A stretch of 63,954 nucleotides of DNA, counting the filler, from Conidiobolus incongruus B7586 (Eukaryota): NCBI GenBank assembly GCA_000697335.1. It is 10 parts of 10 records of this genome, joined end to end, with 100 filler letters (N's around TTAATTAATTAA, not from the genome) between each part and the next. Parts side by side here need not be neighbours in the genome. Positions count along the whole stretch, not along the records: positions 37,320 to 49,624 come from JNEM01006718.1; 9 more parts are not named here. The stretch is one strand, 5' to 3'. Numbering within the stretch: the stretch's first letter is position 1; the number at the start of each line of letters is the position of its first letter. The position numbers and the translations under genes were made by a program. Under the pieces are notes generated by a model. That model was not told the origin of the DNA. It made no database searches and saw nothing but the letters and a program-made list of their open reading frames with translations. Positions 19,724 through 63,954 of the stretch are shown here, in pieces.

Positions 19724-20176
19724 ATGGCACAAGTTTTAAGCAATCAAAATAATTATCTTAATCAAATAAATCAAAGGAATACCGAAAAAGCTTCAAATTT
19801 GAAAGAAGGAACTTATGTTTTTATTAAAAACCAGCCATATAAAATTATTTCAATTTATACCACTCAAACGAATTTAATTCAATTCACTTCTATTCATTCC
19901 TTCTCTGGGGAAAAATTAATTGAATGGTTCGAAGGAACTGATGCTTTAGAAGTTCCTGAAGTTTCCTTTAAAGAATACACTTTAGAAGGTATTGAATCGA
20001 ACTACTTGGTCTTAAAAGATGATCGGAGCACTACGAATAATCACATTCCTTTGCCTAAAGGGATAAATGGTGAAAAAATTCAAAATGCACTGAAAACAAA
20101 TAATGGAAACATTATTATTAAAACAGTTAATATTTTGGGTGAAGAAGGTTTTGATTCATTTTATATAAATAACTAA
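19724..20176 (+). CDS. Divergent eIF5A-like protein lacking the hypusine motif
   Basis: Collinear with the neighbouring eIF5A: ASNLKEGTYVFIKNQPYKI ~ [24 protein letters not shown] ~ FTGKK, EVPEVSFKEYTL ~ [17 protein letters not shown] ~ [14 protein letters not shown] is replaced by QTNL. Intact ORF with TATA at ~19643 and AAAATGG start. Confidence 0.85.
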   Translation: MAQVLSNQNNYLNQINQRNTEKASNLKEGTYVFIKNQPYKIISIYTTQTNLIQFTSIHSFSGEKLIEWFEGTDALEVPEVSFKEYTLEGIESNYLVLKDDRSTTNNHIPLPKGINGEKIQNALKTNNGNIIIKTVNILGEEGFDSFYINN

Positions 20177-21150: not shown

Positions 21151-22333
21151 TATAATAATTTTTTTGATTAAAAAATTAACTTTTTAAAATTAGTTGTTTA
21201 ATTTAATTATATTTAAACTTAATAATAATCATCAAAAGTTTTTTATTTTAGTATTAATAAAACTTAACTATAAACCCTTTAAAATTATTTAAAATTTATA
21301 AGCAGCTTTTGGTAATAAAATATTATTTAAATTAACAATTTATTACTAGATCAATTACTTTAAAGCTAAAAGAAAAACTATTTAAAACCTGTTAAAATTT
21401 AAAAAACTAACTTTAACTATTACTCTTCTAATTATTAATAGAGTGAAAAAATATATTAAAAAACACTTTTTTATTTTAGTTAAAGAATTATTTAAGTATT
21501 ATAATATTAGTTTTATAAATATTTTATATATATTAAAGTTTAAACTTAAATTAATAAATAAAAATATAAAATAGGTACCTTATAATTTAACTAAAGCTTA
21601 AAAAAAAGCTAGAGTAGTTATTATTAAACAAAACTTACTGAAATATTATTAGAAGCTTAAACTTTTACAGTGAATAATTATAATTAATGAATCTTAAATC
21701 TTTATATATAATCTTTTATTAAAACACAAATCAAAATACTAGATTAAGTTAAATTAACCTCCTCTATAAATCCCTTTAAATAAATATTTTGTTAATAAAT
21801 AAATATTAATTATTGTAATAAATTATAATAGTTTATGCTACTCTTATTTAGTTTTTGAAGGAAAATTAATTAATAGTAAATTTTATATTGTTTTTTTAAA
21901 TAAAAGTATTTTTAATTAGTGTTCTTAATATAATTTAAGAAAACTTATTATTTTGCATAATAATTATAAAATTCATAAATTTAAAGCTATAAAAAACTTT
22001 CTAATTAAAAATAATTGGAAAAAACTACTACATCTAGTATATTCTTTAGATTATAACTTATGTAATTATAATTGCTTTAAGTAATTAAAAAACTAGCTTA
22101 CAGGAAAAAAATTTCTACAAGAAAATTTAATTGGTTTGTAAAATATCAAATTTTAGTCTTTAATAAAAAAAACTATTTTTTAGGTGTTAGATCTTTGCTA
22201 AAAGTATAGCAAAAAGTTATTAATAATAAAAGAAACTATTAAATTTATATTATATATTTATTTTTATATATTATATATTAAAATATTTATTTATTTTCAA
22301 TCACAAAAAATTCCAATTATTAAAAATACAGAG
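21151..22333 (+). mobile_element. Near full-length mariner relic (subfamily B)
   Basis: K*VPYNLTKA*KKARV at ~21570 is a decayed WVPHxL linker motif. Also IINES*IFIYN and IILHNN. Right TIR ...TTCCAATTATTAAAAATACAGAG followed by TA. Confidence 0.9.
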
Positions 22334-23294
22334 TAATATTAATTAAATGATTTTTCATTAGAATTTATATTTATTATATAAGTACTAAAATAATAAAGCT
22401 TATATTACAGAAATTTATATTACTTAGTTTTATTGTTATTAATATTATTATTCTTTGTTTCATATATTAAAATTTAATTATAACAATTAATGTATTGATA
22501 GTTATATTAATAGTTCAATATATCATAAAGTTATTAATGAATATAGTTTACTAATTACATATAATTTTAAGTCCCATAAAATATTTTAAAAATTAATTTT
22601 ATAAAAATTTTATCACTCAACAATTTTCATTAATATATACATATATAAATATATTATAATTTATTAATAGAAAAAAAAATAAATATAAAATATTCACATT
22701 AAAATTCAATATAATAAAATTTTTTTAATAAGTATTAAATTTAGTAAATTTAATAATTTGAGAAAATTCAATTAAAATAGTAATTAATATTTAACTCGTT
22801 AATACTGTATTTTTGATGAAGCATTTATTTATAAGCCTACACTCTCAAATAATCATTGTCAATTTCTTTTATTTATTAATTATTTCACATAAATTATTTA
22901 ATATATATAATGACAGATATTTGATAATGAAATAGAAAATTTAATTTTTAAACTTTGTATTGTTAAGATTCACTTTTATAAAATTACTAAATATATATTA
23001 AAATAAAATTTTACACAAAGATTAATAATAATTATAGTATTTAATATGAGTGAAAAATAGATGAAAATATTAAAAAAGAATAAAATATAGACAGAATAGT
23101 TTCTTTTTCATTAAATACAAAAGCAAATAATAGTACTGAATAGGAAAAAAAACTTCAATATAAAATTTTCTAAAAGTGATTTAATTAAAGTTTATCATAG
23201 AATAATAAATTCAATTAAAATTAAAAAGATAGTATTACCTGAAACTTACGAAATAATGAAACATTTTTAAGTTCTAAATAAAAAATGAAGCTGT

Positions 23295-23762
23295 TTATTT
23301 AGAGGATTGGCGAACAGATAAAGCGTGTTCTTCACCCATAGCAGAAACAACGGTAACGAGAACATCACCTTCAGCGTTTTCGAAAGCTTCTTCAATTTGT
23401 TGACCAATTTCTCCTTCAGGAAGACGGACATCATCCTTCATATTACCATCACTGTCCATCAAATTCAAGAAACCATCATCAATGTTGATTAAAGTGTATT
23501 CGTTACGACCAACATTGGGGACATCCATGTTGTGAGTGGAGGGAGAAACATCTTCGTACTTCTTACCAGTGAAGATATCGATAGCAACCAAGTTAACCTT
23601 AGCGTGTCCGTGCTTACCAGTCTTGGAGGTGGACATATCAACAATCTTACAGGGACGACCTTTGATAACAACGTGTCCGTTCTTACGTAAAGCGGAACAT
23701 TGCATGGGATAGGTAAGGGAAGCTCCGGAGGAGGCTTGTTCGAAAGTATGATCGTCTTCCAT
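23295..23762 (-). CDS. TIF51: Translation factor eIF5A (copy 1)
   Basis: [12 protein letters not shown] hypusine motif and full-length eIF5A. Start placed at the Met shared with copy 2; an upstream in-frame ATG exists at 23810. Confidence 0.97.
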
Positions 23763-25238
23763 TGTAATATAATCTATTGATTTGTGTGAAGGCTGCTGAG
23801 AGAGGCTCATTTCCTATAATTCTTCTAAAATTACATAAATAACTTTCTTAAAATATTAAATTATGGGTTTCTCCAACATTTTTAATTCAAACATCATCTG
23901 ATTTCTTTTAAATCAATTATGATCAGTAATAATAGTCAATATAAACAATATACCATTCATTATAAAATATATATTTTAACAAAATACTTTTATTTATAAA
24001 CTTAGTTTAGGTTATATAATCTCAAATAAAGTCAATATATTAATTAATTATAATCTTAAATTTAAATATTTGATTAATTAAAACTATGGTGTAATTCTAA
24101 TTGATAAATTTCAAATGAAAAATATATAGTATTGATTTTTTTTGGAGTTTAATAATAAAAATTGATAATAAACGAGTATACAAATTTAATATAATATTTT
24201 TGCAAATTTTATGAATAGATGCTGATATGAAAAATTGGTTTTTATATGAATTCTGTTTGATAATTAAAGTTTAAAATTTCACATCAAAATATATTTTTTG
24301 ATTGAAATGGATTGATAAATATGGATATTTAATGATATAGTTTATAGCAACCTATTGGGTATGCATTAAATAAATAAGCAAGATATACAATCGAATGATT
24401 TAGGATATGAATAATATTATGTTAAATATCTAACTTGATATACTTTAAACTTGAAGAAAAAGAAATTTAAATCCATCATGAAAAAATATGTGATTAAAAA
24501 TATTCAAGTTCGAAGAGTTTGATTTATCAAACTTAGCAAACAATAAAACAGCTTGAAAATCTAATATAATGAAAATCTATTCTAAGAGAGATAACTTGGG
24601 ACCATTGAAAGATTTTGAAAAATTATATTATGTATTTTGGTTAAAATATATACAATGAAAAAATTGATGTATCGAAGTGGAATAAAATATGATAAATTAA
24701 TGTCTTAAATCGAATTTTAGAATAAATTTCAAGTTGATATAAGTGATCAAATATGTGTTTGAATGAATTATAACTGTAATTTTTGATTGGAATTAAGTTG
24801 AAGAGATATAAAAATTGATCATATTAATTTAGTTATGAAAGAATCAAAACTGGAAAATAAAACAATAGAGAGTAAATTATTTCAGGATCTCTATCTCGAT
24901 AGAGCTAATTCAATATTAAAACTGATGTAAAAATGAACGTAGGAAAAGATACTCAAAGTTCACATAATAATATAGAAACTACTAGTTCATATGATTAACG
25001 AAACAAAAAATATAATGAAAATAATACCAAATAAAAGTAAGATAAAAAGTAAATACTAAAAGTAGATTCAAATGTGAAGGGATTCATTATTGATAAATGA
25101 TTCTAATAGCACTAAAATATTCAATATAGATAAGTATAGCGAGAGGTGTATAAATTAAATTAACAGAATATTTACCTTATTTCCGGAGCTATTGTGAATT
25201 ATTTAACAATTGAAAAGAAAAAAAATAAAATGTACAGT

Positions 25239-25706
25239 TTATTTAGTGGATTGACGAACGGATAAAGCGTGTTCTTCACCCATAGCAGAAACAACGGTAA
25301 CGAGAACATCACCTTCAGCGTTTTCGAAAGCTTCTTCAATTTGTTGACCAATTTCTCCTTCAGGAAGACGGACATCATCCTTCATATTACCATCACTGTC
25401 CATCAAATTCAAGAAACCATCATCAATGTTGATTAAGGTGTATTCGTTACGACCAACATTGGGGACATCCATGTTGTGAGTGGAGGGAGAAACATCTTCG
25501 TACTTCTTACCAGTGAAGATATCGATAGCAACCAAGTTAACCTTAGCGTGTCCGTGCTTACCAGTCTTGGAGGTGGACATATCAACAATCTTACAGGGAC
25601 GACCTTTGATAACAACGTGTCCGTTCTTACGTAAAGCGGAACATTGCATGGGATAGGTAAGGGAAGCTCCGGAGGAGGCTTGTTCGAAAGTATGATCGTC
25701 TTCCAT
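25239..25706 (-). CDS. TIF51: Translation factor eIF5A (copy 2)
   Basis: [12 protein letters not shown] motif; 155 aa, one amino-acid difference from copy 1. Confidence 0.97.
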
Positions 25707-27876
25707 TATGTATAATTAATTCTAAAATATAGATAATTAATTTTGAAGATTATTCATTCAACTTATTTAAATACTTCGTTAATTATCAAAAATATGGGAA
25801 TATCATTATACTGAAAAAATTTACCAATTTTAATAAAATTCTTCCAGTTGATTGGTTAAAAAAATTTACAAAGTTTTGACATAATAGTATTGGACAGTTA
25901 CAAAAATCGTCAAGTTTAATACATTCTCCATACTTGTTTAATCAATTTAATTGGGTAAAAATGGGAACAATCTCAAGATAAATCTTTTAGATTCTTGTAA
26001 AAATTTACCAAGTTCAATTAATATAACTGACAATAGCCTTGACTTTTATTTGTATCAATCAGTTCAATTCAATTACTAATATAAATTAATAATTACAGAT
26101 GTGGTTTGATAAAATTTATAAAATTATCTAATGTTTCAATAAGTTCAATTTTATATTCTTAAGAATGCTGACATCACAAGTTTTCACATATAGTCAAATC
26201 AATTTTACAATTAAATTTTCAAATAAAAATTTATTATCAATTCTTGGTTAAATATTGTTTCCTTATTTCCTTTAGAGATCAATATAAAAAAGCAATATAC
26301 TCAAAAATAAATTTGTGTTAATGATATTTAAATTTTATCCATAGTTTAAAATATTTGATTTTGATGACAATTAGAGAACAAATTTTTTTCTTTGGATAAC
26401 TAGTTCTGTTTCAATTTATTAAATAAATTGTTGATTATTTACATTGCAAAAAATCATTGCTCAAAATGTGAAATATTGTTTTAAATATTTAGAGTATAAA
26501 AACTAAATATAAAATTATCAATTTTATATTTTAATTTATTATCATAAATTATGTTTAAATAGTTAAAATGTAAAGTTGTGCAATTTGAAAAAAATTAAAC
26601 TGATTAAATTTAAATATGATCAAAATAGATGATTTTTGATATTAAATTAATGGAACTTTTTATAATTGAAACATTTTTTAAATGTTTCTGAACAGAATAG
26701 TGCTTAGCCTGTAATATTGTGTCGAGAAAAATATGATGTCGCTTACTCAGTTTTAAAAGGCTGTATATATTTAAAATCGGATGTTGTATAATTTACAATA
26801 TATAATAATAAACTAGCAAAATATTTGATATTAATATCTAAATATATAGATTATTTTTACTTCATAATATATTTAATCATAATAATAGTTTTGAATTTTT
26901 TTCAATGTTATTTACTGCCTCAATATATATTTGAAAAATTGGACTCTTATAATAATATAATAGAAAAAATAAAAGCATTAGGGAATTTTCAATCAATATA
27001 GATATATATTATTTATGATATTTTTAGATATCATTAGTTTTTATTATTTGAATTATTATATTTATGAAATAATAAATATTAAAAAATTAATCAACATCCA
27101 TAATATATTATATTCATATGCTAATATTGCTTTTTTAATTAATATTTAAATTGTTAATTTGAAACAATATTATTCTAATATCAATATAAAGTAATTTCCA
27201 TATTTGTATATCTTTATAATGTAATAGCATAATATACTTAGCTTATATTTTTTAATCATTACTTGAAATTATAAATAATCATATGTATACTGGGTAGTAT
27301 TTGACTAATTGGTTTAAATCCAAAAGTATTTTTATCAATTATCAAAAAATTGCCAAATTATTAAACTAAATTTGGAACTTTAAAATGATATGCCAATATT
27401 ATAATAAATAATTATGAATATAAAAATACACTTGGAATCTTGCCCAATTTAATTTTGCTTATTATATTGATATTCTTTAATTTTAATATACAGTTATATA
27501 ATTTTATTAGGTCAATATTCATATATTTTATAAAACAAACTTTTGTCAAATTATTAGTTTAAAATAATATTGATTATAAAACAATTCAACACATATTAAT
27601 ATAATTTAGAATAAATAATGCTATTCTCTTTAAAATAATTCAAATTTTGACTAACATATGATTATTATTAAATTTAATAACTTTTATCAATCATATTGAT
27701 TAATTATTTCCAATAACCCATAAATGTTAGTATGATCAATATTGGCATATAAACCCATTCACACTGATAAATTCAAGCTAAAATCAAAAATAATATTAAA
27801 ACAGTACTATATAGATAATTAATTAAATAAAATATAAAAATATTTAATGTTATATTAAAATAAATAATTAAAATCA

Positions 27877-37319: not shown

Positions 37320-37322
37320 TCA

Positions 37323-38625
37323 CTCTGTATTTTTAATAATAGGAATTTTTTGCAATTAAAAATAAATAAACATTTGAATATATGATATATAAAAATAAAT
37401 ATATAATATAAATTTAATAGTTTCTTTTATTATTAATAACTTTTTGCTATATTTTTAGCAAACTTCTAACACCTAAAAAATAGTTCTTTTTATTAAAGAC
37501 TAAAATTTGATATTTTACAAACTAATTAAATTTTCCTGTAGAAATTTTCTTTTCTATAAGCTGGTTTTTTAATTACCTAAAGCAATTATAATCACATAGG
37601 TTATAATCAAAGGAATATACTAGATATAGTAGTTTTTTCCAGTTATTTTTAATTAGAAAGTTTTTTACAGCTTTAGATTTATGTATTTTACAATTATCAT
37701 GTAAAATAATAGGTTTTCTTAAATTATATTAAAAACACCAATTAGAAATACTTTTATTTAAAAAAACAATATATAGTTTATTATTAATTGATTTTCCTTT
37801 AGGAACTAAATAAAAATAGCATATATTATTATAATCTATTACAATAATTAATATTCACTTATTAACAAAATATTTATTTAAAGGGATTTATAAAGAAGGT
37901 TGATTTAACTTAATCTAACATATTGATTTGTGTTTTAGTAAAGGATTATACATAAAGATTTAAAATTCATCAATTGTAATTATTCACTGTAAAAGTTTAA
38001 GCTTCTAGTAATATTTTAATAAGTTTTGTTTAATAATAGCTATTCTAATTTTTTTTAAGTTTTAGTTAAATTATAAGGTATTTATTTTACATTTTTATTT
38101 ATTAATTTTAGTTTAAACTTTAAAATATATAAAATACTTGTAAAACTAATATTAAAGTACTTAGATAATTCTCTAGCTAAAATAAAAAGGTACTTTTCAA
38201 TATATTTTTTCACTTTATTTATAATTGAAAAAGTAACAGTTAAAGTTAATCTTTTAAATTTTAACAGGTTTTAAATAGTTTCTCTTTTAACTTTAAAGTA
38301 ATTTACCTAATAATAAATTGTTAATTTAGATAATATTTTATTATTAAAAGCTACTTATAAATTTTAAATAATTTTAAAGGGTTTAAAGTTAAGTTTTACT
38401 AATACTAAAATAAAAAACTTTTGATGATTACTATTTAGTTTAAGCATAATTAAATTAAATAACCAATTTTAAAAAGTTAATTTTTTAATCAAAAAAACTA
38501 ATATATATATATATATTAAAAATATATAATTTCCTATTAACTTTGTATATATTTATTCATTTCAAATTAATAATATGTTTGAAAAATCAGAAATTAAAAA
38601 ATTTCCTATTATTTCAAATTCAAGG
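37323..38625 (-). mobile_element. Full-length (~1.3 kb) mariner relic (subfamily B)
   Basis: Reverse complement of 21151-22333. Retains ATG, IDES and ILHDNCKIH (D2). Imperfect ~30-bp TIRs at both ends, with TA at 38626. Confidence 0.9.
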
Positions 38626-43863: not shown

Positions 43864-43935
43864 TGACGCGTGAGAGACTCGAACTCCCAGCCTTCCGCTC
43901 TGGAGGCGGACGCGCTACCATTGCGCCAACACGTC
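43864..43935 (-). tRNA. tRNA-Trp (CCA)
   Basis: GACGTGT TG GCGC AATGGTA GCGC G TCCGC CT-CCA-GA GCGGA AGGCT GGGAG TTCGAGT CTCTC ACGCGTC A; complete cloverleaf, T-tract downstream. Confidence 0.95.
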
Positions 43936-43947
43936 TTAAGATTTTTT

Positions 43948-44504
43948 TGACAATTGTTATCTAATGGTCACCTTTTCTCACTCAAAATCACCGATCATCC
44001 CAATTAAGTCATATAAATAATATTAACCAGTTGTGAATAAGCCTCTAAACCCTTGTTATTACAATCTCTACATGTTTTACAACCTTATTATTGATTCGTC
44101 ATAGCCTACTTATGCCAATACTTTCTACTCAATTCTAGTGGCACTTTTCTCTATTCTACTTTACAAATAAACCTTATTTTTCTACTCAAAACCCACTTCC
44201 GAGCATACTCAAGGAGTCATCTATAGCTTCACTTGAGACATATTCCATTATCCGCTCTACATCTATTCCTACTGATATTCTGTAATCTACTTTCTTAGTA
44301 TGTCAGATTCTCACACTGCCACTGTTGCTGCTGATCTAGTCGCCTTCTTCAACACTTCATTTACCAGTAATCATGGTCAGATGACTAGGGAACTGGCCAT
44401 CCGTAACCTACCTCAGTTTGTAGGCACCATGCTTCATAATTTAGCCTATACAATGGCTATGTCAGTGTTTTCGATGACGCTCAAAGAGCTAATAACCACG
44501 ACAA
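43948..44504 (+). mobile_element. Solo-LTR-like repeat, copy 1, immediately upstream of tRNA-Trp
   Basis: Direct repeat of 48561-49135. TG.../TGT start (43948 or 43955) and ...CGACA(A) end; TATAAAT at ~44012 and AATAAA at 44166. Confidence 0.7.
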
Positions 44505-45149
44505 TTTTTGATTAAAATTTAATTAACTCATTATATTTGAAACCTTAATTTCCTATTTTTTAAATATATAATTTTCAAATTTATTTTGTCACATTTCATT
44601 CATTTAAATAAGTTAAATTTGATTTCAATTAAACAATATATATATTTTTTATAATATATCATAAATGGATTATTTAATCTTTGTAATTATATATTAATAT
44701 CAACTCATAAATATATATAATAATATTTAAAATTCAAAACTATAATTATGTGAACTATCAGTAAAAATTTTATTAAAAAGAATTTAATATTTCAAAATTT
44801 TTAATTTGATTAATGGGTAAATTTAGAATAATTAAGATACCTAAGATTTAATCAAGATCTATTAAGTTTAGAAATTTGATAAATTGTTAATTATTATATT
44901 TACGAAATAAAGTTGAAAAAACTTATATTCAATCTCCAATGTCAATATTCATATTTTTAATTTGTTTTAACCTAATTCTTTTTTAATCTTTCAATTTCAT
45001 ATTTTTATATTATTGATTATTGGGAAATGTCTATAAATTAATTAATTCATAATAATTTTAATATTATAATTTCAACGAATATTAATTATAAATCATTGAT
45101 ATTTATATATTTTGTTGATTGAATGAACACTAAAATACAGTTAATGAAG

Positions 45150-48100
45150 TTATGGCATACCGTTGAAATCTACCGGAATTTCTTTGAACTCTACAGTTGG
45201 TCTATTAGTCAATATCTGAACATTCTTCAATGGACGATCGTTAGGCTGATTCTGGCGTCGCCAATCGGAATAGGTATGCGTAAAGCGAATGGGTTTGGGT
45301 TGGAACACCTCTCCAGTATCTTCTACTGAAGGGTCAGAAGTGTTAGCTGAGGATTTGGTCAAGTGTCCAAAGTGAATATTTTTGAATTGAGCTATTTGGG
45401 GATGCGATTTGCACAGGTCCGGATACTTTTGAATCACATCTATGACCTTTTGAACGCGTCTTTGAACTTGCGCGTCGTTGATGCGTTGTTGGGGTCTCAC
45501 TCCCTGCTTGGCGTCTGTTCCATTGGAATCGTATTTGGCCTGTTCCGCCAGCCATTTTGAGAAGGACTCCCACCTTGCTTGAATAGCCTCCTGCTTTCCC
45601 TTCTCCAATTTGATCTTGCTCAAGGGTTGGAGGAATGCGGAATTCGACTTCAGATTCTCCACTTTGAGTGGCGGCATTTTGAAAGCGCCTTTAATGGATC
45701 CGTTCAAATACTGCTCTTCGTAGTTCTTGACACATTGGTTAAAGTTCTTCTGGAGTGCTTCGTTCTGTAGAGGATTTGATAGAAAGTTAGAGAGTTCCTC
45801 CTTAAACGCTTGAGATGGTATATATGCTTGAGTTGTTTGAAATCCCAAATTTCTCATATTTCTAGAAGCTGCAATCGCCGCCTCTGACGGTATGGTAGGC
45901 ACAGTCGTTTTTGAAGTGAGGTTGTCCTTTCGAAGTGGCTTATCAGGGAGCATCTGTTCGGGCTGAGGATTACAAGTCTTTAATAAAATATCCACAATTT
46001 GTTTCGCTTTTTCGAATTCTATCAAGCAGAATTTGTATACCGATAGACACGAATTAATCCACGAAGCTGGATTGCTTCCCTCTAATTCCGAGATAGTTGG
46101 TTCAGAATTGGAGAAGAAGACGTGGGGAGCGATGTGACCGATCATATTGGACAATTCCTTACGCTCATTCAAAACCGATTCAATCGTTCCTTGAAATAAT
46201 TTGCAATATGAATTCAAACTCATAAAATGTTGGCCAAAATTTGAATTCAAACCACTCATCTGATGCATAAGATTTGAGTAATCCTCGGGAGCCAACACTT
46301 TTTTGAAGACTTCTGTGGAATTCATAAAGCAATTTATAGTAGAATAAAACTGTTTGCTTTGGGTTAATAAGAGTTCGGAATTGGCGTGAATTTTCCTCAA
46401 CTCCACAAGTAGGCATTCGAAGGGTTGGAGATCTAAAGATACGAGGACACCTGGGGGATCCACTTCCAAATCGTTGAGCATTGAAGTGAATGCAGTCTCC
46501 CAATTGTTGCGATTCTCTAAGGCGTTCGCGGTTTGCTTAGTGAATTGGTACTTTTGTTGGACTTTTTCGCCCCAGCTGTTTATCTTGTTCTTGAGGCTGC
46601 GAATGTCGTAACTGTCTTGGATTTTCATTTTGGAGCTCAGGATTTTGAAATTGTCTACGCGTTTTCGAATGAAATCTAATCGATATAAGATCCATTTGTA
46701 AACGAGTGTGTTTTCTGCTGGGTTTGGTAGAATTTGATCTTCAGGTTTGTTCAAGTGCTCTTTAGGTTTGGTAAAAGGGGGTGCAAAATCTATATGGTGA
46801 CACGTTTTCACCTTAGGAAAATCAATCTTATCCAATTCTTTTAACTTATCAGGATTTCTCATAATAATAATGAGAGCATTATGGGGAGCAGGACGATAGG
46901 TAGGATTATAAATTAACGTACGTTCTAAATAATGCGCCATATTCAGACATTTACAATTCAAGATATTGGGCAATGACCTCGCCAAAGGCTTTTGATTTTT
47001 AATAATTCCATAATGTGGTAATTTCTGCAGTACTGGTGATTCCTTGTCGTCTGGAAACTCCTTCTCGTTAAGCGTACCCAGATATTTGTAGATTTCGTTT
47101 AGTTGCTCCTCGCGAGTTCTACCGCGCATAACCCCAATGCCTAGATCCATCTGGAGGAATACGACCGCTAAACTCCAGAGATCGACCTTTTCTGTAAATT
47201 TTTCTACACCCATTAGTATTTCAGGAGCTCTGCACGATGTGGAAGTGGGGGTTTTGTCCAAGTACTTGGTGAATGCTCTCGCTTTAGAGCACATGGCACT
47301 AAATCCTGTAAGTCGAATTCTTCCATCGGTGTTGATTAAAATATTTGAAGCTATAAAATTAAATAATTTAATATATTAAATGATGAAACATTAACATTAA
47401 CTTACGACAAACATTATTATGGATTAGGTTAGTACTATGCAAATATCCCAAAGCTCTCAATATATTACAAATAATCTTTCTCTGATGCGTAAACGATAGC
47501 TCAATGTTTGGATTCATTAAGAGGCCCTGAAGATCGTGGTCATAATAATCCATTTTAATGAACTTTTGAGGCTGTTCTTTTGGTGTTAAAACTATATCTC
47601 ATATTAATCAACTTAAAGTAAATTTTAAATATAATATTTACTCTTATTGGATAAATATCCTCTAGTTTCTATGAGATAATCTTTGAAAAATCTTATTTCA
47701 TCCATATATCTGGAGTAGCCATTCATCTAATCCATATGTTAATATAATGATATTTGAACACATAAATATAATAATAATAATAATACTTCGTCATTAGATT
47801 GAGGTACATATTTAGCTACACACAATTCACCCTTTGGCATTTTCACAACAAATACAGGTCTAAATCAAATTATTAAAACTATGATTCTATCTAGAAATAT
47901 TAAAAAAATACCTATTAGGATCCTGATTCAACACCTTAACCACTGTGCCTTTCATCTGGTTGGTGCACAGCGCCTTCAACTCCTCACCAGCCACCTTGAA
48001 ATTCTTCTGAATGTCATACAAGTAATTGTTAAACATAATATCCCATCGCGGTATAGAAGTTGGAAACGAAGCATCGAACTCCTTCTTTCTGTAGAAGTTG

Positions 48101-48156
48101 TGAAAACTTTCTTCGTACCCATATTCGTCGGAAGTTAGAAATGAGAAATCGGTCAT
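45150..48156 (-). CDS. CDK (CDK9/12-like)-derived probable pseudokinase with long C-terminal extension, multi-exon
   Basis: Exons give ELCVAKYV, MDYYDHDLQGLLMNPNI, LGYLHSTNLIHNNVC|PSNILINTDGRIRLTGFS and RAPEILMG...VDLWSLAVVF, followed by ~550 aa of helical/low-complexity sequence. Confidence 0.8.
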
Positions 48157-48474
48157 TGGTTAGGAAATTTTATTTAATATTAATTTGTTAAATTAGAAAA
48201 ATTAAAATTAAATGATTTTGATTATTGCTAAAATTTTATTTTATATTTTTAAATTGATTTTAGGGTTAAATTTTGAATATGTGGACCTTGGTAACATATT
48301 AAATAAATTAATAAATACAATTATTGATTATGGGAAATATAGTAATAGATTAAAATTTTCAAGAATAATTTGAAAAAATTACAAAATATAGTAAATCAAA
48401 AGAGAAGTATAAGTATGTAAAAATATTTTCTAGAAAGTGGTTTAAAACTAAAAATAAATCTGTCATTAAATCTA

Positions 48475-48547
48475 CACCCAACGTGGGGGTCGAACCCACA
48501 ACCTTGAGATTAAGAGTCTCACGCTCTACCGATTGAGCTAGCCGGGC
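48475..48547 (-). tRNA. tRNA-Lys (CTT)
   Basis: GCCCGGC TA GCTC AATCGGTA GAGC G TGAGA CT-CTT-AA TCTCA AGGTT GTGGG TTCGACC CCCAC GTTGGGT G; complete cloverleaf. Confidence 0.95.
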
Positions 48548-48560
48548 TTGTTAAACATTT

Positions 48561-49135
48561 TTACAATTAAATTGTTTTCTAATTGATACCTTGTCCCACA
48601 CAAAAATCACTACCAAATTACCAATCACTCTAATTAAGTCATATAAATAATCCCAACCAGTTGTGAATAAGGTTCTAACCCCCTCATATCCCATTGTCCA
48701 CATGTCCTTATAGCCATATTATTGATTCGTCATAGCCTACTTATGCCAATATTTTCCACTCAATTCTAGTGGGACTTTTCTCTATTCTACTCTACAAATA
48801 AACCTTATTTTCCTACTCAAAGCCCACTTCCGAGCATACTCAAGGAGCCATCTATAGCTTCACTTGAGACATATACCATTATCCGCTCTACATTTATTTT
48901 TACTGATATTCTGTGATCTGCTTTCTTAGCATGTCAGATTCTTACACTGCCACTGTTGCTGCTGATCTAGTCACCCTCTTCAACACTCCATTTACCAGTA
49001 ATCATGGTTGGATGGCTAAGGAATTGATCATCAGTAACCTACCTCAGTTTGTAGGCACCATGCTTCATAATTTGGCCTATACAATGACTATGTCAGTGTT
49101 TTCGATGACGCTCAAAGAGCTAATAACCGCGACAA
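48561..49135 (+). mobile_element. Solo-LTR-like repeat, copy 2, immediately upstream of tRNA-Lys
   Basis: Direct repeat of 43948-44504 with long identical runs. TGT at 48573, ends GCGACA(A). Confidence 0.7.
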
Positions 49136-49452
49136 ATTTAATTTCAAAATTTTATATTTTTAAAATTGTTAAATTAAAATATACAAATCATTATTTTGAT
49201 AAATCCAACTCTCAAATTTAAAAAATTCAAGTAATGTTTAATTTTCAATTAATTTATCCTTTCATTCTTCTCAAAATTCAAATTATTAAATACATAATTA
49301 TGTAAAATATTTCAAAATTTATTTGTTACAAGAAATTTTATAATTTACCCTCAATATTATTTATATATATCAGTTAAAAAATTATAAATATTTCAATTAA
49401 TTAATAATATATTCATCAATTATAACTTATGAATAGCTATATTTTGATATTA

Positions 49453-49624
49453 CTCTGCATTTTTAATAATGGGAATTTTTTGTGATTGAAAATAAATAAA
49501 TATTTTAATATATAATGTATAAAAATAAATATATAATATAAATTTAATAGTTTCCTTTATTATTAATAACTTTTTGCTATACTTTTAGCAAAGATCTAAC
49601 ATTTAAAAAACAGTTCTTTTTATT
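49453..49624 (-). mobile_element. Mariner right end (subfamily B), cut by gap
   Basis: TA + CTCTGCATTTTTAATAATGGGAATTTTTT TIR; matches 37323-37495. Confidence 0.85.
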
Positions 49625-49724
49625 NNNNNNNNNNNNNNNNNNNNNNNNNNNNNNNNNNNNNNNNNNNNTTAATTAATTAANNNNNNNNNNNNNNNNNNNN
49701 NNNNNNNNNNNNNNNNNNNNNNNN
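49625..49724. other. Artificial scaffold gap linker
   Basis: N44-TTAATTAATTAA-N44. Confidence 0.97.
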
Positions 49725-52530
49725 TATTATATATATATATTATATATAAGAAATATATATTTTCAAACTATATATATATATATATTCAATTTTAATTATT
49801 TTTTTATGAAAATATTTTGATTTTAATTTTTATATTTAAATTTAATTATATTTAAACTCAATTATAGTTATCAAAAGGCTTTTATTTTTGTATCTTTAAA
49901 ACTTAACTATAAATTTTTTAAAATTATCTAAAACTTGCAAATAGCATATAAAGATAATGTTTTATCTAAAACTACCATATATTGCTGGATTTGTGATTTT
50001 AAAGCTAGAAAAAATATTATTTAAAGTTTATCAAAATTTAAATAATTAATTTCTACTACTATTTTTTCACTTAATAATAAATTAAAAAAATATATTAAAA
50101 AATACCTTTTTATTTATATTAAAGAAATATTAAAGCAATTTGATATTAATTATTCAAGCATATTATATTTACTTAAGTTTAAACTTAAATTAATTAATAA
50201 AAATACAAAATGGATATTTTATAATTTAATATCAACTTAAAAGAAAACCAGAGTAATTATAGCTAAACTAAACTTATTAAGGTATAACCAAAAACAAAGG
50301 TTTTTATAGTAAATACTTATAATTAATGAATCTTAAATTTTTTTATATAATCTTTTACTTAAAAATAAAATAAGATATTAGGTTAAACTTATTTAATTCT
50401 TATTATAAATTCCAATAAATAAATATTTTGAATATAAACAAATATTAATTATTGAAATATATTTTAATGATATATGATTTTTTTATTTAATATCTCAAGG
50501 AAAATTGAATAATAGTAAATTATATACACTAACCCACAAAAGTAAGTTATAAAATCAAAAACACCTATATTTTTACTAATAACTTGATTAATATTTAATG
50601 AAATAAACCTAAATTAAATAATTAAAATCTATTATATTTATTAGTTATATATATCATTAAATAATGATATTTAGCTATTAATTGGCTAAAATATAAACCC
50701 TTAAATTTTACCTAAGATGAGTTATAAATTTGTAGGTTTTTGGTGATAAAAAAAAATTAAAACCTAGTGTATCCACCTTTAGCTTTTCTAACTTCTTTAA
50801 GTTTGTGGGGTATAAAATCAATTAACTTCTTACACTAGGAAGGGTTAATCTTGTTCTATGCTTCTTGAACATATTCCTAAAGTTGATCTAAATTTTTTAC
50901 TGGGGGGAAAGCTTTAATAGCTTTTTTTAACTAATCCCAAAGGTGTTTAATTAGATTAAAGTTAGGAGATTGAAGAGGCTACTTCATAACTGTTATCTTG
51001 TTATTTTTAAGCTATTTGGTAGTAGAAGCTATAGTATAGCAAGAGGCATTATCTTGCTGGAAAATAACATCAGATTTGTTTAACCCATATTATTTAATGG
51101 TTTTTTTCAATTTATTGTTTAGAATACTTTGGTATATCTCAACATTAATTCCCCTATTAACTTTACAAAGATACCTTACACCTAAAGACAACATACATCC
51201 CTAAATAATAATTAACCCACTACTATACTTTTGGGTAGAATTAATATGATGGTCACAAAATAGTTCTACATCTTTTCTGAAGCATCTAGCTTTTTTATCA
51301 AATCCACTAAGGTATATTTTTGTTTCATCAAACTAAATAACCTTACTCTAATCAGTTTTAGTTCAACATTAGTGGCAACATTCAAACTCCCACCTAGCTT
51401 TATAGTGGGATTTCTTTAGTTGGGGGTGTTTTTTCTTAAGGTGTGAGTGGTATCCATGCTAATGTAAAACATATATAATAGTATCAATGCTAACTAATAT
51501 TCTTGTATAGTCTCACAGTTCTTGCTATATTTCTACAGTAGTACTACACTTGCTTGTACTAACTAACCTACAGATATACTTCTTATCATGTTCATCTATA
51601 ATTTTAACACACTTAAGTTTAGGTTTAAATGTTTCTTTATTGCTATTCTTAACAGCTTTAGCTATAGTAGACTAGCTAACACTAGTAATTCTAGCAATAT
51701 CATAAGTTAATTTACCTTCTTTATAAAGTTAATTAATGCACAAGTAGATTTTTTTAAAGAGGGATTTAAGTATAATGATACTAATAAAAAAAATTTAGTA
51801 TATCTGTAAAATATTATATAAAATAATAGCAAAGAGAGAAAAAAGATATAGTTATATATTGTTAAATATATCCCCTTATCTCAAAAACCTGTAAATTTAT
51901 AACTCACCTTGGTTAAATATTAAGGGTTAATATTTTTGCTAATAGTTTACTAAATATATCTAAATATATTTATCTATTATTAAATAATATACCTTAATTA
52001 TATATTATAGTTTCAAGTAATCTAATATATACAATTGTTTTAGTTATTAATTAAAATATATATATTTTTGATTTTATGACTCACTTTTGCAGGTTAGTGT
52101 ATTATCTTTTTAAATAAAACAATTTCTAAATGGTATTCTCAATATATATTAAAAACACCTATTATTATTGATAATAATTATAAAATATATAAAGCTAAAG
52201 CTATAAAAGAATTTTTATATAAAAAAATAAAGGTAGTTATTATATCTAATACATTTGCCTTATTATAACCTATATGATGATAATTGTTTTATATAATTAA
52301 AAAAATAGCTTGCAAGAAAAGAATCCTTATAAACAAATTAAATTAGTTTGTAAAAAATCAAATTTCACTTTTTAATAAAAAGAACTATTTTTAAGATATT
52401 AGAAGCTTACTAAAAATATAGAAAAGAGTTATTAATAATAAAGAAGGTTATTAATTTTGTATTATTCATTAATTTTTATATATTATTTATTATATTATTT
52501 GTTTAATTTTTATTTTAATATTGTATTATA
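49725..52530 (+). mobile_element. Mariner relic (subfamily A) interrupted by a nested Tc1 element
   Basis: 49745-50526 plus 52102-52448 together are the reverse complement of 1-1140. Confidence 0.88.
50527..52099 (-). mobile_element. Tc1-like (DD34E) transposon relic with TIRs and TA target duplication; transposase relic ~51773->50757
   Basis: TIRs CACTAACCCACAAAAGTAAGTTATAAAATCAAAAA / TTTTTGATTTTATGACTCACTTTTGCAGGTTAGTG flanked by TA. Translation VI*FDETKI, II*GCM, FQQDNASCYT, *PLQSPNFNLIKHLW and AKGGYTRF* is a decayed Tc1 with D-(34)-E spacing. Confidence 0.93.
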
Positions 52531-54255: not shown

Positions 54256-54337
54256 TCAGAGAAATTCTCAAATATTACAATATAACTAATTGAAATTTTA
54301 AAAAGTAAAAATTTTAATCTCAGTCACATAACACAAA

Positions 54338-54862
54338 ATGGCTTCAGCTTTAGCTCGTCAAAATTTTGCTGCCGCCTCTGAAGAAGGGGTTAACCAACAA
54401 ATTAATATGGAATACCGTGCTTCAATGGTATATGCTTCTATGGCTGCTTACTTTGATCGTGATAACGTCTCACTTCCTGGACTTGCCAAGTTCTTCCGCA
54501 AGAGCAGTCATGAAGAACGCGACCATGCTGAAAAATTGATTGATTACTTGAATCAAAGAGGAGGACGAGTTCAAATTCAAACAATTGACGGACCTGATGT
54601 AGAATTCGAGTCAGCTGTTTCTGCTGTCCAACTTGCTCTCCAGTTAGAAAAAGATGTTAATCGCTCCCTTCTTAACCTCTATAAAATCGCTGAACAACAC
54701 AATGATGGTCAAATGTCCCACTTTATTCAAACAGGATATCTTCAAGAGCAAGTAGAAGCTATCAAACAACTTAGCGATTATGTCACTCAGCTCAATCGTG
54801 TTGGCGGTGATGGACTTGGCCTTTACCTTTGGGATCAAAACCTTCTTAAGAGTTTGAACTGA
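54338..54862 (+). CDS. Ferritin (H-type ferroxidase centre), variant three-fold channel
   Basis: RQNF, QINMEYRASMVY, SHEERDHAEKL, NQRGGRV, LEKDVN and EQVEAI. Confidence 0.96.
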   Translation: MASALARQNFAAASEEGVNQQINMEYRASMVYASMAAYFDRDNVSLPGLAKFFRKSSHEERDHAEKLIDYLNQRGGRVQIQTIDGPDVEFESAVSAVQLALQLEKDVNRSLLNLYKIAEQHNDGQMSHFIQTGYLQEQVEAIKQLSDYVTQLNRVGGDGLGLYLWDQNLLKSLN

Positions 54863-57220: not shown

Positions 57221-57302
57221 CCCCAAAACTATTCACTCTTTACTATTATCAATTAAGATTCAATCAAATTTAATAATAATTTATATATAATCAATAATTA
57301 AA

Positions 57303-57827
57303 ATGTCTGCTGGATTAGCTCGTCAAAACTTCTCCTCTGCCTCTGAAGAAGGTATCAATCAACAAATCAACATGGAATACCGTGCTTCAATGGTATATGC
57401 TTCTATGTCTGCTTTCTTTGCCCGTGATAACATTGCTCTCCCTGGTCTTGCCAAATTCTTCCGCAAGAGCAGCCACGAAGAAAGAGAGCACGCCGAAAAA
57501 TTGACTGATTACTTGAACCAAAGAGGTGGTCGTGTACAATTACAAACTGTTGATGGACCTCAAGTCGAATTCGACTCTGCCGTTGCTGCTGTTCAACTCG
57601 CCCTCCAACTTGAAAAGGATGTCAACAAGTCTTTATTGAATCTCCACAAGATTGCTGATGAACATAACGATCCCCAAATGTGCGACTTCATTGAATCTGA
57701 ATTCTTAAATGAACAAGTTGAAGGTATCAACCAATTAGCCAACTACGTCACACAACTCAACCGTGTTGGTGGTGATGGTCTTGGTCTCTACCTCTGGGAC
57801 CAAAATTTACTCAACAGCTTGAACTAG
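57303..57827 (+). CDS. Ferritin (canonical H-type)
   Basis: All ferroxidase ligands plus canonical LLNLH and DPQMCDFIESEFLNEQVE; strong codon bias. Confidence 0.97.
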   Translation: MSAGLARQNFSSASEEGINQQINMEYRASMVYASMSAFFARDNIALPGLAKFFRKSSHEEREHAEKLTDYLNQRGGRVQLQTVDGPQVEFDSAVAAVQLALQLEKDVNKSLLNLHKIADEHNDPQMCDFIESEFLNEQVEGINQLANYVTQLNRVGGDGLGLYLWDQNLLNSLN

Positions 57828-60285: not shown

Positions 60286-60342
60286 TAATTAATTAAAAAA
60301 AATAATTTTATTAAATAATTATATTTCAAAAAATATATTATA

Positions 60343-61924
60343 TATTAACTTGCAAAAGTAAATTATAAAATCAAAAACACTTATATTTTTACTAATAACT
60401 TCATTAATATTTAATAAAATAAACCTAAATTAAATAATTAAAATCTATAATATTTATTAATAATATATATTAATAATATATATTATTGAATGATGATATT
60501 TAGTTATTAATTAACTAATTATAAACCATTAAATCTTATTTAAGGTGAGTTATTAATTTATAGGTTTTTAGTGATAAAAAAATTAAAACCTAGTATATCT
60601 ACCTTTAGCTTTTTTAACTTCTTTAAATTTGTGGGGTATAGAATCAACTAACTTTTTATACTAAAAAAGGTTAATCTTGTTTTATGTTTCTTAAACATAT
60701 TTTTAAAACTAATTTAAATTTTTTGCTAAAAGGAAAGCTTTAATAGCCTTTTTTAACTGATCCTAAAAATATTTAATTAAGTTAAAATTAAAAGATTAAA
60801 GAAGCTATTTTATAACTAATATCTTACTATTTTTAAGCTATTTGGTAGTAAAAGCTATAATATAGCAAAAGGCATTATCTTATTAGATAATAATATTAAA
60901 TTTGTTTAACCTATATTATTCAATGTTTTTTTTCAATTTATTATTTAGAATACTTTAGTATATTTCAATATTAATTCCCCTATTAACTTTACAAAGATAC
61001 CTTATATTTAAAAATAATATATATTCTTAAATAATAATTAACCTGCTATAATACTTTTAGGTAAAATTAACATAATAGTCATAAAGTAATTTTATATCTT
61101 TTTTATAGTATTTAACTTTTTTATTAAATTTACTAAAATATATTTTTAATTTATTAAACTAAATAACTTTATTTTAATTAATTTTAATTTAATATTAATA
61201 ATAATATTTAAACTTGCATCTAACTTTATAATTGGATTTCTTTAATTGGGGGTGTTTTTTCTTAAGAAATAAGTGGTATCTATGTTAATATAAAGTACAT
61301 ATAATAGTATTAGTGCTAATTAATATTCTTATATAGATTTATAGTTCCTGTTATATTTTATAATAGTATTATACTTATTTATATTAATCAACCTATAGAT
61401 ATACTTCTTATTATATTTATCAATAATTTTAACACACTTAAGTTTAAATTTAAATGTGTTTTTATTGCTATTCTTAATAGTTTTAACTATATTAGATTAG
61501 TTAACAATAATAATTCTAATAATATCATAAGTTGATTTATATTTTTTATTAAGTTAATTGATATACAAGTGGATTTCTTTAGAGAGGGATTTAAGTATAA
61601 TGATATTAATAAAAAAAATTTAATATATCTATAAAATATTATATAAAATAATAACAAAGAAAGAAAAAAGATATGGTTATATATTGTTAAATATATCCCT
61701 TTATCTTAAATACTTCCAAATTTATAACTTATTTTAATTAAATATTAAAGGTTAATATTTTTGCTAATAACTTATTAAATATATTGAAATATATTTATTT
61801 ATTATCAAATAATATATCTTAATTATATATTATAGTTTTAAATAATTTAATATATACAATTGTTTTAGTTATTAATTAAAATATATATATATATATTTGA
61901 TTTTATAATTTATTTTTACAGGTT
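60343..61924 (-). mobile_element. Tc1-like relic, copy 2 (more mutated; right TIR clipped by gap)
   Basis: Collinear with 50527-52099 throughout, differing mostly by C>T/G>A. Confidence 0.9.
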
Positions 61925-62024
61925 NNNNNNNNNNNNNNNNNNNNNNNNNNNNNNNNNNNNNNNNNNNNTTAATTAATTAANNNNNNNNNNNNNNNNNNNN
62001 NNNNNNNNNNNNNNNNNNNNNNNN
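61925..62024. other. Artificial scaffold gap linker
   Basis: N44-TTAATTAATTAA-N44. Confidence 0.97.
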
Positions 62025-62152
62025 TATATAATTTAAATATTTAAAAATTTTAAATAATATTTAAATATTAAATATATATTTTAAGTATAATATTTAATAT
62101 ATTATTATAATAAAAAAAATAAGTTATTATAAAAATAAAATATATTATTATA

Positions 62153-63724
62153 TACTTACCTATAAAAGTAAGTTATAAAATCAAAAACAATTATATTTTT
62201 ACTAATAACTTGATTAATAATTAATAAAATAAACTTAAATTAAATAATTAAAATCTATTATATTTATTAATAATATATATCATTATATAATGATATTTAA
62301 CTATTAATTGGTTAAAATATAAACATTTAAATTTTACCTAAGATAAGTTATAAATTTATAGGTTTTTAGTGATAAAAAAAATTAAAACTTAATGTATCTA
62401 CCTTTAACTTTTCTAACATCTTTAAGTTTGTGGGGTATAAAATCAACTAACTTTTTACACTAAGAAAAATTATTCTTATTCTATACTTCTTAAACATATT
62501 TTTAAAATTAATCTAAATTTTTTGTTAGGGGAAAAACTTTAATAGCTTTTTTTAACTAATCCTAAAGGTGTTTAATTAGGTTAAGGTTAAGAAATTAAAA
62601 AAACCACTTCATAACTATTATCTTGTTATTTTTAAACTATTTGGTAGTAAAAGTTATAGTATAATAAAAGGTATTATCTTATTAAAAAATAATATTAGAT
62701 TTGTTTAACCTATATTATTCAATAGTTTTTTTTAATTCATTATTTAAAATATTTTAGTAAATTTTAGTATTAATTCCTTTATTAACTTTATAAAGATACT
62801 TTATACTTAAAAACAATATATATCCTTAAACAATAATTAACCTACTATTATACTTTTAGGTAAAATTAACATGATAGTTATAAAGTAATTTTATATCTTT
62901 TCTAAAGCATTTAACTTTTTTATTAAATTTACTAAAGTATATTTTTGTTTCATTAGATTAAATAACATTATTCTAATTAGTTTTAATTTAATATTAGTAG
63001 TGATATTTAAACTCCTACCTAATTTTATAATAGGATTTTTTTAGTTAAGGGTGTTTTTTCTTAAAGTGTAAGTAATATCTATACTAATATAAAATATATA
63101 TAATAATATTAGTGTTAACTAATATTTTTATATAGTCTTATAGTTCCTGTTATATTTCTACAATAGTATTATATTTGCTTATATTAACTAACTTATATAT
63201 ATACTTCTTATTATATTCATTTATAATCCTAGCATATTTAAGTTTAAGTTTAATTATGTTTTTATTGTTATTTTTAACAACTTTAGCTATAATAAACTAG
63301 CTAACACTAGTAATTCTAACAATATTATAAGTTGATTTACCTTTTTTATAAAGTTAATTGATACACAAGTAGATTTTTTTAAAGAGGGAATTAAATATAA
63401 TGATACTAATAAAAAAAATTTTATATATCTATAAAATATTATATAAAATAATAGCAAAGAAAGAAAAAAGATATGGTTATATATTGTTAAATATATCCTT
63501 TTATCTTAAAAACCTGTAAATTTATAACTTATCTTAGTTAAATATTAAAGGTTAATATTTTTACTAATAATTTACTAAATATATCTAAATATATTTATTT
63601 ATAATCAAATAATATACTTTAATTATATATTATAACTTTAAGTAAATTAATTTATACAATTGTTTTAATTATTAATTAAAATATATATATGTTTGATTTT
63701 ATAACTTATTTTTGCAAGTTAGTG
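62153..63724 (-). mobile_element. Tc1-like relic, copy 3, full length
   Basis: TA + TACTTACCTATAAAAGTAAGTTATAAAATC ... TTTTGCAAGTTAGTG + TA; collinear with 50527-52099. Confidence 0.9.
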
Positions 63725-63954
63725 TATAATATTAACAATATAAAAATATAATTACAAAATTAAATATTATTTCATTAATAAATATATTAACCCTAATATA
63801 ATACAATTTATATTAGGTAATATTAAATTACTATAATATTTATAAAATATAATTTTAATCTTTTAAAATAATATAAAAGATTAAAAATAATTAATATTTA
63901 AAAAAAAAGTCTAATTATTAGAATAATTAAAATCTTATTTATTTTATTAATTTT

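Follow-up and report, generated by a model that had tools for sequence, protein, structure and literature searches.

Two copies of a 550-bp repeat at the 5′ ends of different tRNA genes in Conidiobolus: probable solo LTRs of a tRNA-targeting retrotransposon

The closest described systems are mobile elements that insert at a fixed distance upstream of tRNA genes. By way of contact between its integrase and TFIIIB, Ty3 integrates 1-4 bp upstream of the RNA polymerase III (Pol III) start and comes to lie about 15 bp away from the mature tRNA; it inserts in both orientations, and its copies carry clean TG...CA ends with a 5-bp duplication. The tRNA-upstream position is common to Ty3/sigma of Saccharomyces cerevisiae, Ty3p, Tyl3, Tyl6, Ylt1 and Candida beta/Tca8, all of them from ascomycete yeasts, and the beta LTRs of Tca8 lie 6-30 bp upstream of tRNA genes in Table 1 of PMC5911963. 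In Schizosaccharomyces japonicus, Tj1 inserts 5-11 bp upstream of mature tRNA ends, always in one orientation, according to PMC4600332, with an LTR of 244 bp and a 5-bp duplication. Outside the fungi, DGLT-A elements are Ty3/gypsy LTR retrotransposons of dictyostelid amoebae whose solo LTRs were formerly called 'H3R'; in PMC5006619 their LTRs measure 163-601 bp, many survive as solo LTRs, most families lie 10-34 bp from mature tRNA 5′ ends, and some families are classed by tRNA-upstream position alone, while Table 1 of PMC5911963 gives 13-33 bp. The dictyostelid non-LTR elements NLTR-A (2-6 bp) and TRE5 (about 40-54 bp, facing away from the tRNA gene) also target sites upstream of tRNA genes. 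Dada DNA transposons, as described in PMC3706591, target tRNA genes, have no terminal inverted repeats and leave 6-7 bp duplications. Table 1 of PMC5911963 documents position-specific insertion at Pol III starts for ascomycete yeasts and dictyostelid amoebae.

Here we describe a repeat in a comparable position in Conidiobolus. The window, the whole stretch of DNA that was analysed, comprises 63,954 bases, and its only tRNA genes by ARAGORN and Rfam are tRNA-Trp(CCA) and tRNA-Lys(CTT), each with one copy of the repeat beside it. The window also holds eIF5A-like and ferritin-like genes in local pairs, the members of a pair being alike within the gene and not outside it. The tRNA genes, spacers and repeat copies are as follows.

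43864-43935, minus strand: tRNA-Trp(CCA), intact, presumed target 1 (ARAGORN; Rfam RF00005, 66.7 bits, model positions 1-71 of 71)
43936-43947, no strand: spacer from the tRNA-Trp 5′ end to the outer bound of copy A; TTTT at 43944-43947 is the candidate left target duplication
43948-44504 (outer bounds), 43955-44503 (TGT...ACA bounds), plus strand: repeat copy A, 37% GC, 9 CpG
48475-48547, minus strand: tRNA-Lys(CTT), intact, presumed target 2 (ARAGORN; Rfam RF00005, 64 bits)
48548-48560, no strand: spacer from the tRNA-Lys 5′ end to the outer bound of copy B; ATTT at 48557-48560 is the candidate left target duplication
48561-49135 (outer bounds), 48573-49134 (TGT...ACA bounds), plus strand: repeat copy B, 38% GC, 7 CpG

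The direct repeat of about 560 bp that a preliminary description had placed beside the two tRNA genes is real: between the TGT...ACA bounds 490 of 562 aligned columns are identical, with 13 gap columns. The copies lie 4.6 kb apart, and BLASTN and a two-copy profile run over the 63,954 bases find exactly these two and no third. The distances reported there also hold, the outer left bounds lying 12 bp (tRNA-Trp) and 13 bp (tRNA-Lys) and the TGT...ACA bounds 19 bp and 25 bp from the tRNA 5′ ends. Both copies are head-to-head with their tRNA gene and share one relative orientation, as had been stated; that they point away from the tRNA is read solely from the order TATA, AATAAA, ATG. Of the 14 repeat-covered segments of the window none but these two comes as close as 100 bp to a tRNA end, and the nearest of the rest is 897 bp away. 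A post hoc calculation puts the chance of such placement, for one given two-copy family, at 1e-7 to 3e-7. Segmental duplication is rejected, in agreement with the preliminary description, since no more than 42 of 72 bases are the same in the two tRNAs and the right flanks of the copies are unrelated (27 of 57 columns match). The right end is sharp, the similarity of the copies stopping at the same point at which GC per 100 bases drops from 41 and 42 to 14 and 12 (from about 41% to 13%).

By our comparison the distances fall inside the published DGLT-A and Tca8 windows and agree with the figures given above for Ty3 and Tj1. The likeness to DGLT-A is one of distance upstream of the tRNA and of length, compared by position and length; DGLT-A differs in its amoeba host, in its insertion in either orientation (PMC5911963) and in having a known reverse transcriptase and integrase. 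A Ty3- or DGLT-A-type tRNA-start position is occupied by both of the two copies in the window, at two isotypes (Trp and Lys), and it is on these two copies of one window that the putative tRNA targeting rests. The repeat further differs from the Ty3 group in its host, which belongs to the Entomophthoromycotina, and from Ty3 in that both copies have one orientation and that TG...CA ends and a duplication do not coincide at one set of bounds. The single orientation resembles that of Tj1, although two copies cannot establish an orientation rule, and the LTR length and 5-bp duplication of Tj1 are unlike the repeat. The LINE-type NLTR-A and TRE5 differ in their distances from the repeat, whose copies share both ends and have no clear poly(A) end. 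Dada families insert inside an RNA gene and keep to one gene type per family, whereas here two isotypes are involved and both genes are intact.

The ends and internal signals of the repeat are listed below, the functions named being putative.

44012-44018, plus strand: TATAAAT, candidate Pol II TATA box of copy A
44166-44171, plus strand: AATAAA, candidate polyadenylation signal of copy A
44505-44508, no strand: TTTT, candidate right target duplication of copy A
48642-48648, plus strand: TATAAAT, candidate TATA box of copy B
48797-48802, plus strand: AATAAA, candidate polyadenylation signal of copy B
49136-49139, no strand: ATTT, candidate right target duplication of copy B

As previously noted, both copies end in CGACA followed by A and contain TATA followed by AATAAA. 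When the bases of one copy are shuffled 5,000 times, 5.5% of the shuffles reproduce this order, and the copies are not independent, so the order is a weak sign. The TG...CA termini common to both copies are TGT...ACA, a 3-bp match that is weak in itself, and neither copy has a target duplication of 4-6 bp at these bounds. The matching 4-bp flanks are indeed present at the outer bounds (TTTT/TTTT and ATTT/ATTT), but there the element ends in CAA and copy B begins with TT. These flanks are the sole solution with the same bounds and the same length in both copies among 18 left × 4 right boundary pairs, and random AT-rich right flanks yield such a solution in 421 of 20,000 trials. If a one-base slip is allowed, a common AATT-containing core can be traced beside each end of each copy, with AATT preceding GTT on the left and following CGAC or CGACA on the right; it amounts to a direct repeat of 7 bp in copy A and 5 bp in copy B. 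No primer-binding-site-like or purine-tract sequence adjoins either end (two window tRNAs, flanking 30 bases), as expected for solo copies.

We propose that these observations are best fitted by two separate insertions, each directed to the region where Pol III starts, and that this is the most likely course. The module, whatever its class, is likely to be a mobile element that aims at tRNA 5′ ends, and we put the probability that it is specifically a Ty3/gypsy-like solo LTR at roughly 0.6. Under this model a Ty3/gypsy-like retrotransposon predicted to be steered to the Pol III start site would have inserted twice. By analogy with Ty3, DGLT-A, Tca8 and Tj1, its integrase would dock on the tRNA initiation complex (TFIIIB in the case of Ty3), its cDNA would be joined a few bases upstream of the start, and recombination between its two LTRs would later have removed the coding interior; the tRNA gene would be spared by an upstream insertion because its promoter is internal. 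Judging from sequence, the variable first 150 bp may represent U3 with its TATA box, the conserved 400 bp may represent R-U5, and gag may begin inside the LTR with the ATG frame that extends to the right end. Divergence between the copies is uneven, with 30 changes in the 152 aligned bases of the first part against 29 in the remaining 397 (P = 8e-5), which fits LTR sub-families rather than one neutral duplication. The annotated retroelements of C. coronatus (Gypsy, 4.92% of the genome; DIRS, 0.78%; copia, 0.01%) have Gypsy as their main class, which counts in favour of a Ty3/gypsy-like element. Counting against an LTR are the LTR-type ends and target duplication at different bounds, a frame with no homolog, no informative fold match and no purifying selection, CpG kept as in unique non-coding DNA, and the presence of just two copies, 4.6 kb apart, in a window with local gene pairs. 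What stands of the preliminary description is that a discrete module resembling a mobile element lies at the Pol III start region of each of two tRNA genes, unrelated to one another, in an early-diverging fungus; its LTR identity is the part that did not hold firm, because TG...CA ends and a 4-6 bp duplication need different bounds and no interior, reverse transcriptase or integrase is linked to the repeat.

The last 204 bp of the repeat hold an ATG reading frame that is open in both copies and reaches the right end; this frame and the CpG kept in the copies are two points beyond the preliminary description.

44300-44515, plus strand: ATG frame of copy A, 71 codons, 68 of them within the repeat, stop in the flank; possible gag start
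48931-49221, plus strand: ATG frame of copy B, 96 codons, 68 of them within the repeat, the remainder in unrelated flank

The two frames share 57 of 68 residues, and a frame of such length arises in 2-11% of shuffles. With pN at 0.083 and pS at 0.042 (13 and 2 changes) there is no purifying selection on the frame. Codon positions 1, 2 and 3 carry its changes in the ratio 11:3:1; that another coding frame underlies this skew is rejected, the two fitting frames holding many stops. A protein search returned 0 matches among 41 candidates of 119-2000 aa, a search with the two-copy alignment 0 among 1 candidate of 37-119 aa, and the 5.8 billion set gave no hit; two matches among 1.84 billion representatives were rejected as tandem-repeat artefacts, the best single local match having E 0.023. 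Pfam gave only RIX1 (E 0.09, copy A), a PDB sequence search gave 0 matches, and exact look-ups of window proteins found 0 of 8 and 0 of 3. Over the 68 residues Atlas offered the sub-0.9 leads DUF4939 and DUF7041, which we take to be Gag-related, for copy A and nothing for copy B. The AlphaFold model consists of two helices (pTM 0.34), and a fold search with it had no match at E <= 0.001, the best being E 3.9. The gag of Ty1 starts inside its LTR, a point for which literature searches gave no confirmation.

Searches for a parent element covered the window and protein, metagenome and viral collections, and tied no internal region, reverse transcriptase or integrase to the repeat. None of 145 pattern matches in metagenome collections and none of 4 in viral collections was confirmed, viral contigs contained the repeat motif 0 times, and the 10 loci from a metagenome scan for the tRNA-Trp motif resembled neither the repeat nor, outside the tRNA, the window.

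Mobile elements of other classes might also target tRNA genes, for example a DIRS/Ngaro-type tyrosine-recombinase retroelement, represented by a solo repeat, or a DNA or non-LTR element that is short and non-autonomous. Such an element would enter beside the tRNA start, either recombining at a short core that contains AATT or preferring it as a site. We regard this as unlikely but worth weighing: the same short core at both ends of both copies is the trace expected of a sequence-specific recombinase, canonical integrase ends do not occur together with a duplication, DIRS-class repeats reach 0.78% in C. coronatus, and dictyostelid non-LTR elements also target the zone (NLTR-A at 2-6 bp, TRE5 at about 50 bp). 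However, the core, which sits in AT-rich DNA, is shared only if the copies may differ by one base on the right, both ends are common to both copies, unlike those of 5′-truncated LINEs, and no clear poly(A) end or terminal inverted repeat beyond 3-6 bp is present. Dada DNA transposons insert inside small-RNA genes and not upstream, and Dada is rejected as both tRNA genes are whole; the open-access titles and abstract openings searched contain no report of DIRS/Ngaro tRNA targeting. A tRNA-derived SINE is likewise rejected, the shared module being 5′ of tRNA genes that are different true isotypes, and no paired A and B boxes are common to both copies.

It is improbable that the module is instead a duplicated host unit, a small peptide gene or non-coding RNA with its promoter, kept by selection back to back with tRNA genes. 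Its GC of 37-38% and its CpG level do resemble host sequence and not the CpG-erased transposon relics of the window, gene-confined similarity is seen in other local pairs (eIF5A-like, ferritin-like), and the part downstream of the TATA box is better conserved. Yet the similarity ends before a stop codon, both frames stopping in unrelated flank, the 11:3:1 codon-position pattern contrasts with 27:11:80 for the ferritin-like pair, no Rfam match is found at E <= 1, the RNA folding z-scores are -0.05 and -1.27, and two different tRNA partners at the same distance are left unexplained. Very improbable is a single insertion later copied to the second tRNA gene by ectopic recombination begun in similar tRNA 5′ parts: the copies are close and in direct orientation, and the spacers adjoining the tRNAs are alike in 14 of 19 ungapped columns, but the tRNAs themselves agree at only 42 of 72 bases, copying would need to have ended precisely where the module ends on the right, divergence is uneven and highest nearest the tRNA, and each copy has its own 4-bp flank word. 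That the repeat is untargeted, and either came to lie beside the two tRNA genes by chance or owes its retention there to nothing but selection, is scarcely credible; tRNA genes are numerous in the genus (1,294 reported for one C. coronatus assembly) and only two copies are seen, but the chance is about 1e-7 for a given pair and selection by itself would not hold the spacing constant to a few bases.

The Ty3/gypsy-like element that we favour would probably add a fungal phylum to those in which the tRNA-start strategy is known. Position-specific insertion at Pol III starts in Zoopagomycota was not found in the open-access literature searched, and the Conidiobolus case, if true, would add a third fungal lineage. 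Once reverse transcriptase and integrase are known, it would help to decide between an ancestral origin of Ty3-like targeting in fungi and a renewed one; since a review expects further cases of this kind, the basic result comes as no great surprise.

The contrast in CpG is the more open point, namely whether tRNA-adjacent insertions escape repeat-directed C-to-T decay. The two copies contain 16 CpG against 35 expected (ratio 0.45), the other dispersed repeats of the window 1 against 76 (0.01), and its unique non-coding DNA has a ratio of 0.54; retention in the copies, unlike the other repeats, keeps the host-sequence explanation alive. A rather doubtful extension of our model is an independently evolved Conidiobolus tRNA-start retroelement with non-canonical ends and with a first frame that begins inside the terminal repeat, sheltered by its tRNA-adjacent site from a defence that erases CpG and has destroyed the window's other repeats. 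Were such sheltering real, the tRNA 'safe haven' would serve to guard the element against its host as well as the host against the element. INO1 in the window is 95% to C. coronatus, and the host is, on its sequence, Conidiobolus-like.

The window contains two tRNA genes (ARAGORN, Rfam), and the 5′ end of each, on its right-hand side, is immediately preceded by a copy of one repeat module of ~550 bp.

43864-43935, minus strand, tRNA-Trp(CCA), full length (ARAGORN and Rfam)
48475-48547, minus strand, tRNA-Lys(CTT), full length (ARAGORN and Rfam)

The preliminary description placed the same repeat upstream of both genes, and this holds: copy A (43955-44503, beside tRNA-Trp) and copy B (48573-49134, beside tRNA-Lys) are identical at 490 of 562 aligned columns, 13 of the columns being gaps, and the tRNAs and flanks are unrelated, with 42 of 72 bases in common between the tRNAs and 27 of 57 columns matching between the right flanks. 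GC per 100 bases falls from 41 and 42 at the right ends of the copies to 14 and 12 just beyond. Neither BLASTN (word size 7) nor an nhmmer profile found a third copy in the window, to which all copy counts refer. Self-BLAST of the window gave 14 repeat-covered segments, and copies A and B are the only ones <100 bp from a tRNA end. A given pair would by chance have both left ends ≤30 bp from the 5′ ends of different tRNAs, in head-to-head orientation, with a probability of 1e-7 to 3e-7. This post hoc figure is far too small for 14 segments to offset, and placement by chance is scarcely credible. Between the copies lies a kinase-domain gene with a long exon (45150-47375, minus strand), the 570-residue tail of which has no Pfam match at cut-off.

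We propose that the module is a Ty3/gypsy-like solo LTR (probability roughly 0.6), solo LTRs being the product of LTR-LTR recombination (PMC7175516). Two discrete copies stand at near-equal distance from two different tRNA genes, and would represent two independent targeted insertions because the target is a position rather than a tRNA sequence. The integrase of Ty3 binds to TFIIIB, and Ty3 insertions fall 1-4 bp before the start site, at ~15 bp from the mature tRNA (PMC5911963; PMC5006619). Most DGLT-A families are found 10-34 bp upstream, frequently as solo LTRs with lengths of 163-601 bp (PMC5006619), and Tj1 is found 5-11 bp upstream in a single fixed orientation (PMC4600332). The module resembles Ty3 and DGLT-A in position; given its ambiguous ends, and since no coding interior is reached, it is a candidate member of Ty3/gypsy. 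A targeted element of another class is a lesser but real possibility. In one C. coronatus assembly with 1,294 tRNA genes, Gypsy elements make up 4.92% and DIRS 0.78% (PMC12387763).

The ambiguity of the ends arises as follows. The inner bounds, TGT...ACA, are separated from the tRNAs by 19 and 25 bp, and neither copy shows a 4-6 bp duplication there. The outer bounds (43948-44504 and 48561-49135) lie 12 and 13 bp away and have flanks TTTT/TTTT (copy A) and ATTT/ATTT (copy B). Of 18 x 4 boundary pairs, they alone give a consistent solution for the duplication; random AT-rich right flanks yield such a solution in 421 of 20,000 trials, and the terminal bases there are TG...CAA (copy A) and TT...CAA (copy B). 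A further reading, in which a shared core containing AATT flanks each copy on the left and on the right, needs a one-base slip, and two copies in AT-rich DNA are insufficient to decide among the three.

Within the module, TATAAAT (44012 in A, 48642 in B) precedes AATAAA (44166, 48797), an order seen in 5.5% of 5,000 shuffles. In the first 150 bp, 30 of 152 aligned bases differ between the copies, with transversions equal in number to transitions, and in the remainder 29 of 397 differ, 26 of them by transition (first 150 bp against remainder, P = 8e-5 and 0.003). The divergence is thus uneven, where neutral decay of a single duplication would be even. A variable U3 before a conserved R-U5 fits this pattern, and a promoter ahead of a conserved transcript would fit it too. 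A duplicated host unit, with which such a promoter and the CpG content discussed below are compatible, appears improbable, and a single insertion followed by ectopic copying to the second site more improbable still. No structured RNA was found in the module by Rfam (E ≤ 1) or folding.

The last 204 bp of each copy hold a reading frame that starts with ATG (44300 in A, 48931 in B) and stays open for 68 codons to the right end of the module, its stop codons falling in unrelated flank. In dinucleotide shuffles (2,000 each), comparable frames occur in 11.4% when the whole module is shuffled and in 2.3% when only the region is. Of the changes between the copies, 13 are non-synonymous and 2 are synonymous (pN 0.083, pS 0.042), and changes between 44300-44503 and 48931-49134 distribute 11:3:1 over codon positions 1:2:3 (P = 0.002, one named position); an alternative coding frame as the source of this skew was rejected, since both frames that could account for it are interrupted by stops. 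No homolog was accepted in any sequence search, two phmmer matches being tandem-repeat artefacts. In the Atlas, the copy A frame pointed to DUF4939 and DUF7041 clusters, with leads scoring below 0.9, and the copy B frame gave no lead. The predicted structure comprises two generic helices, for which the fold search gave no match. This frame is possibly the beginning of gag within the LTR, or is due to chance.

The window has a GC of 23% and contains intron-containing fungal genes. Judged by sequence, the host is Conidiobolus-like (Entomophthoromycotina), because among the best 120 of 5,734 matches the INO1 frame reaches 95% identity with a protein labelled Conidiobolus coronatus and ≤83% with those of other named fungi. 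No report of a tRNA-targeting element in Zoopagomycota was found in the open-access literature searched, which took in an Entomophthora muscae preprint (10.1101/2023.09.13.557621), PMC5006619 and the Dada paper PMC3706591. The feature is real, and probably a new member of a known tRNA-targeting strategy in a fungal phylum new for it.

The window's other dispersed repeats (GC 12-20%) hold 1 CpG in 11,147 bases against 75.7 expected, the mark left by strong C-to-T decay directed at repeats in this Conidiobolus-like fungus.

3-1604, CpG-depleted dispersed repeat
13469-14071, CpG-depleted dispersed repeat
21151-22375, CpG-depleted dispersed repeat
37322-38610, CpG-depleted dispersed repeat
49444-52515, CpG-depleted dispersed repeat
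60294-63855, CpG-depleted dispersed repeat

Copies A and B, with 16 CpG against 35.3 expected, have not undergone this decay, because their ratio of 0.45 is close to the 0.54 of ten hand-picked unique non-coding stretches; duplicated genes give 0.84. Retained CpG would be expected if the copies are host sequence, if they are a solo LTR too short or too young to reach a threshold of size or age, or if neighbouring active tRNA genes shelter them. Repeat methylation has a size threshold in Ascobolus, and Phycomyces carries 5mC on repeats, according to a review passage that makes no mention of Conidiobolus (PMC13297926). Tc1/mariner relics (Pfam HTH_Tnp_Tc3_2, DDE_3) are among these dispersed repeats, three of them related and 83-85% identical.

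50420-52108, Tc1/mariner DNA transposon relic, transposase reading with many stops (Pfam PF01498, PF13358)
60294-61924, Tc1/mariner DNA transposon relic
62034-63733, Tc1/mariner DNA transposon relic

The first of these seems to break up another repeat family at ~50526-52100. The top repeat family, D1, and many of the inverted repeats detected were rejected as artefacts of assembly gap linkers, which occur at 1615-1714 and eight like places as 44 N, 12 bases and 44 N.

Two gene pairs also lie in the window. Genes at 23276-23773 and 25221-25716, which we take to be eIF5A-like, are 97.6% identical and 1.9 kb apart, with a third, diverged eIF5A-family frame nearby (19598-20176; Pfam PF01287 and PF21485 below cut-off). 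A tandem pair at 54335-54860 and 57300-57825, presumably ferritin-like, is 78% identical, with changes chiefly at the third codon position.
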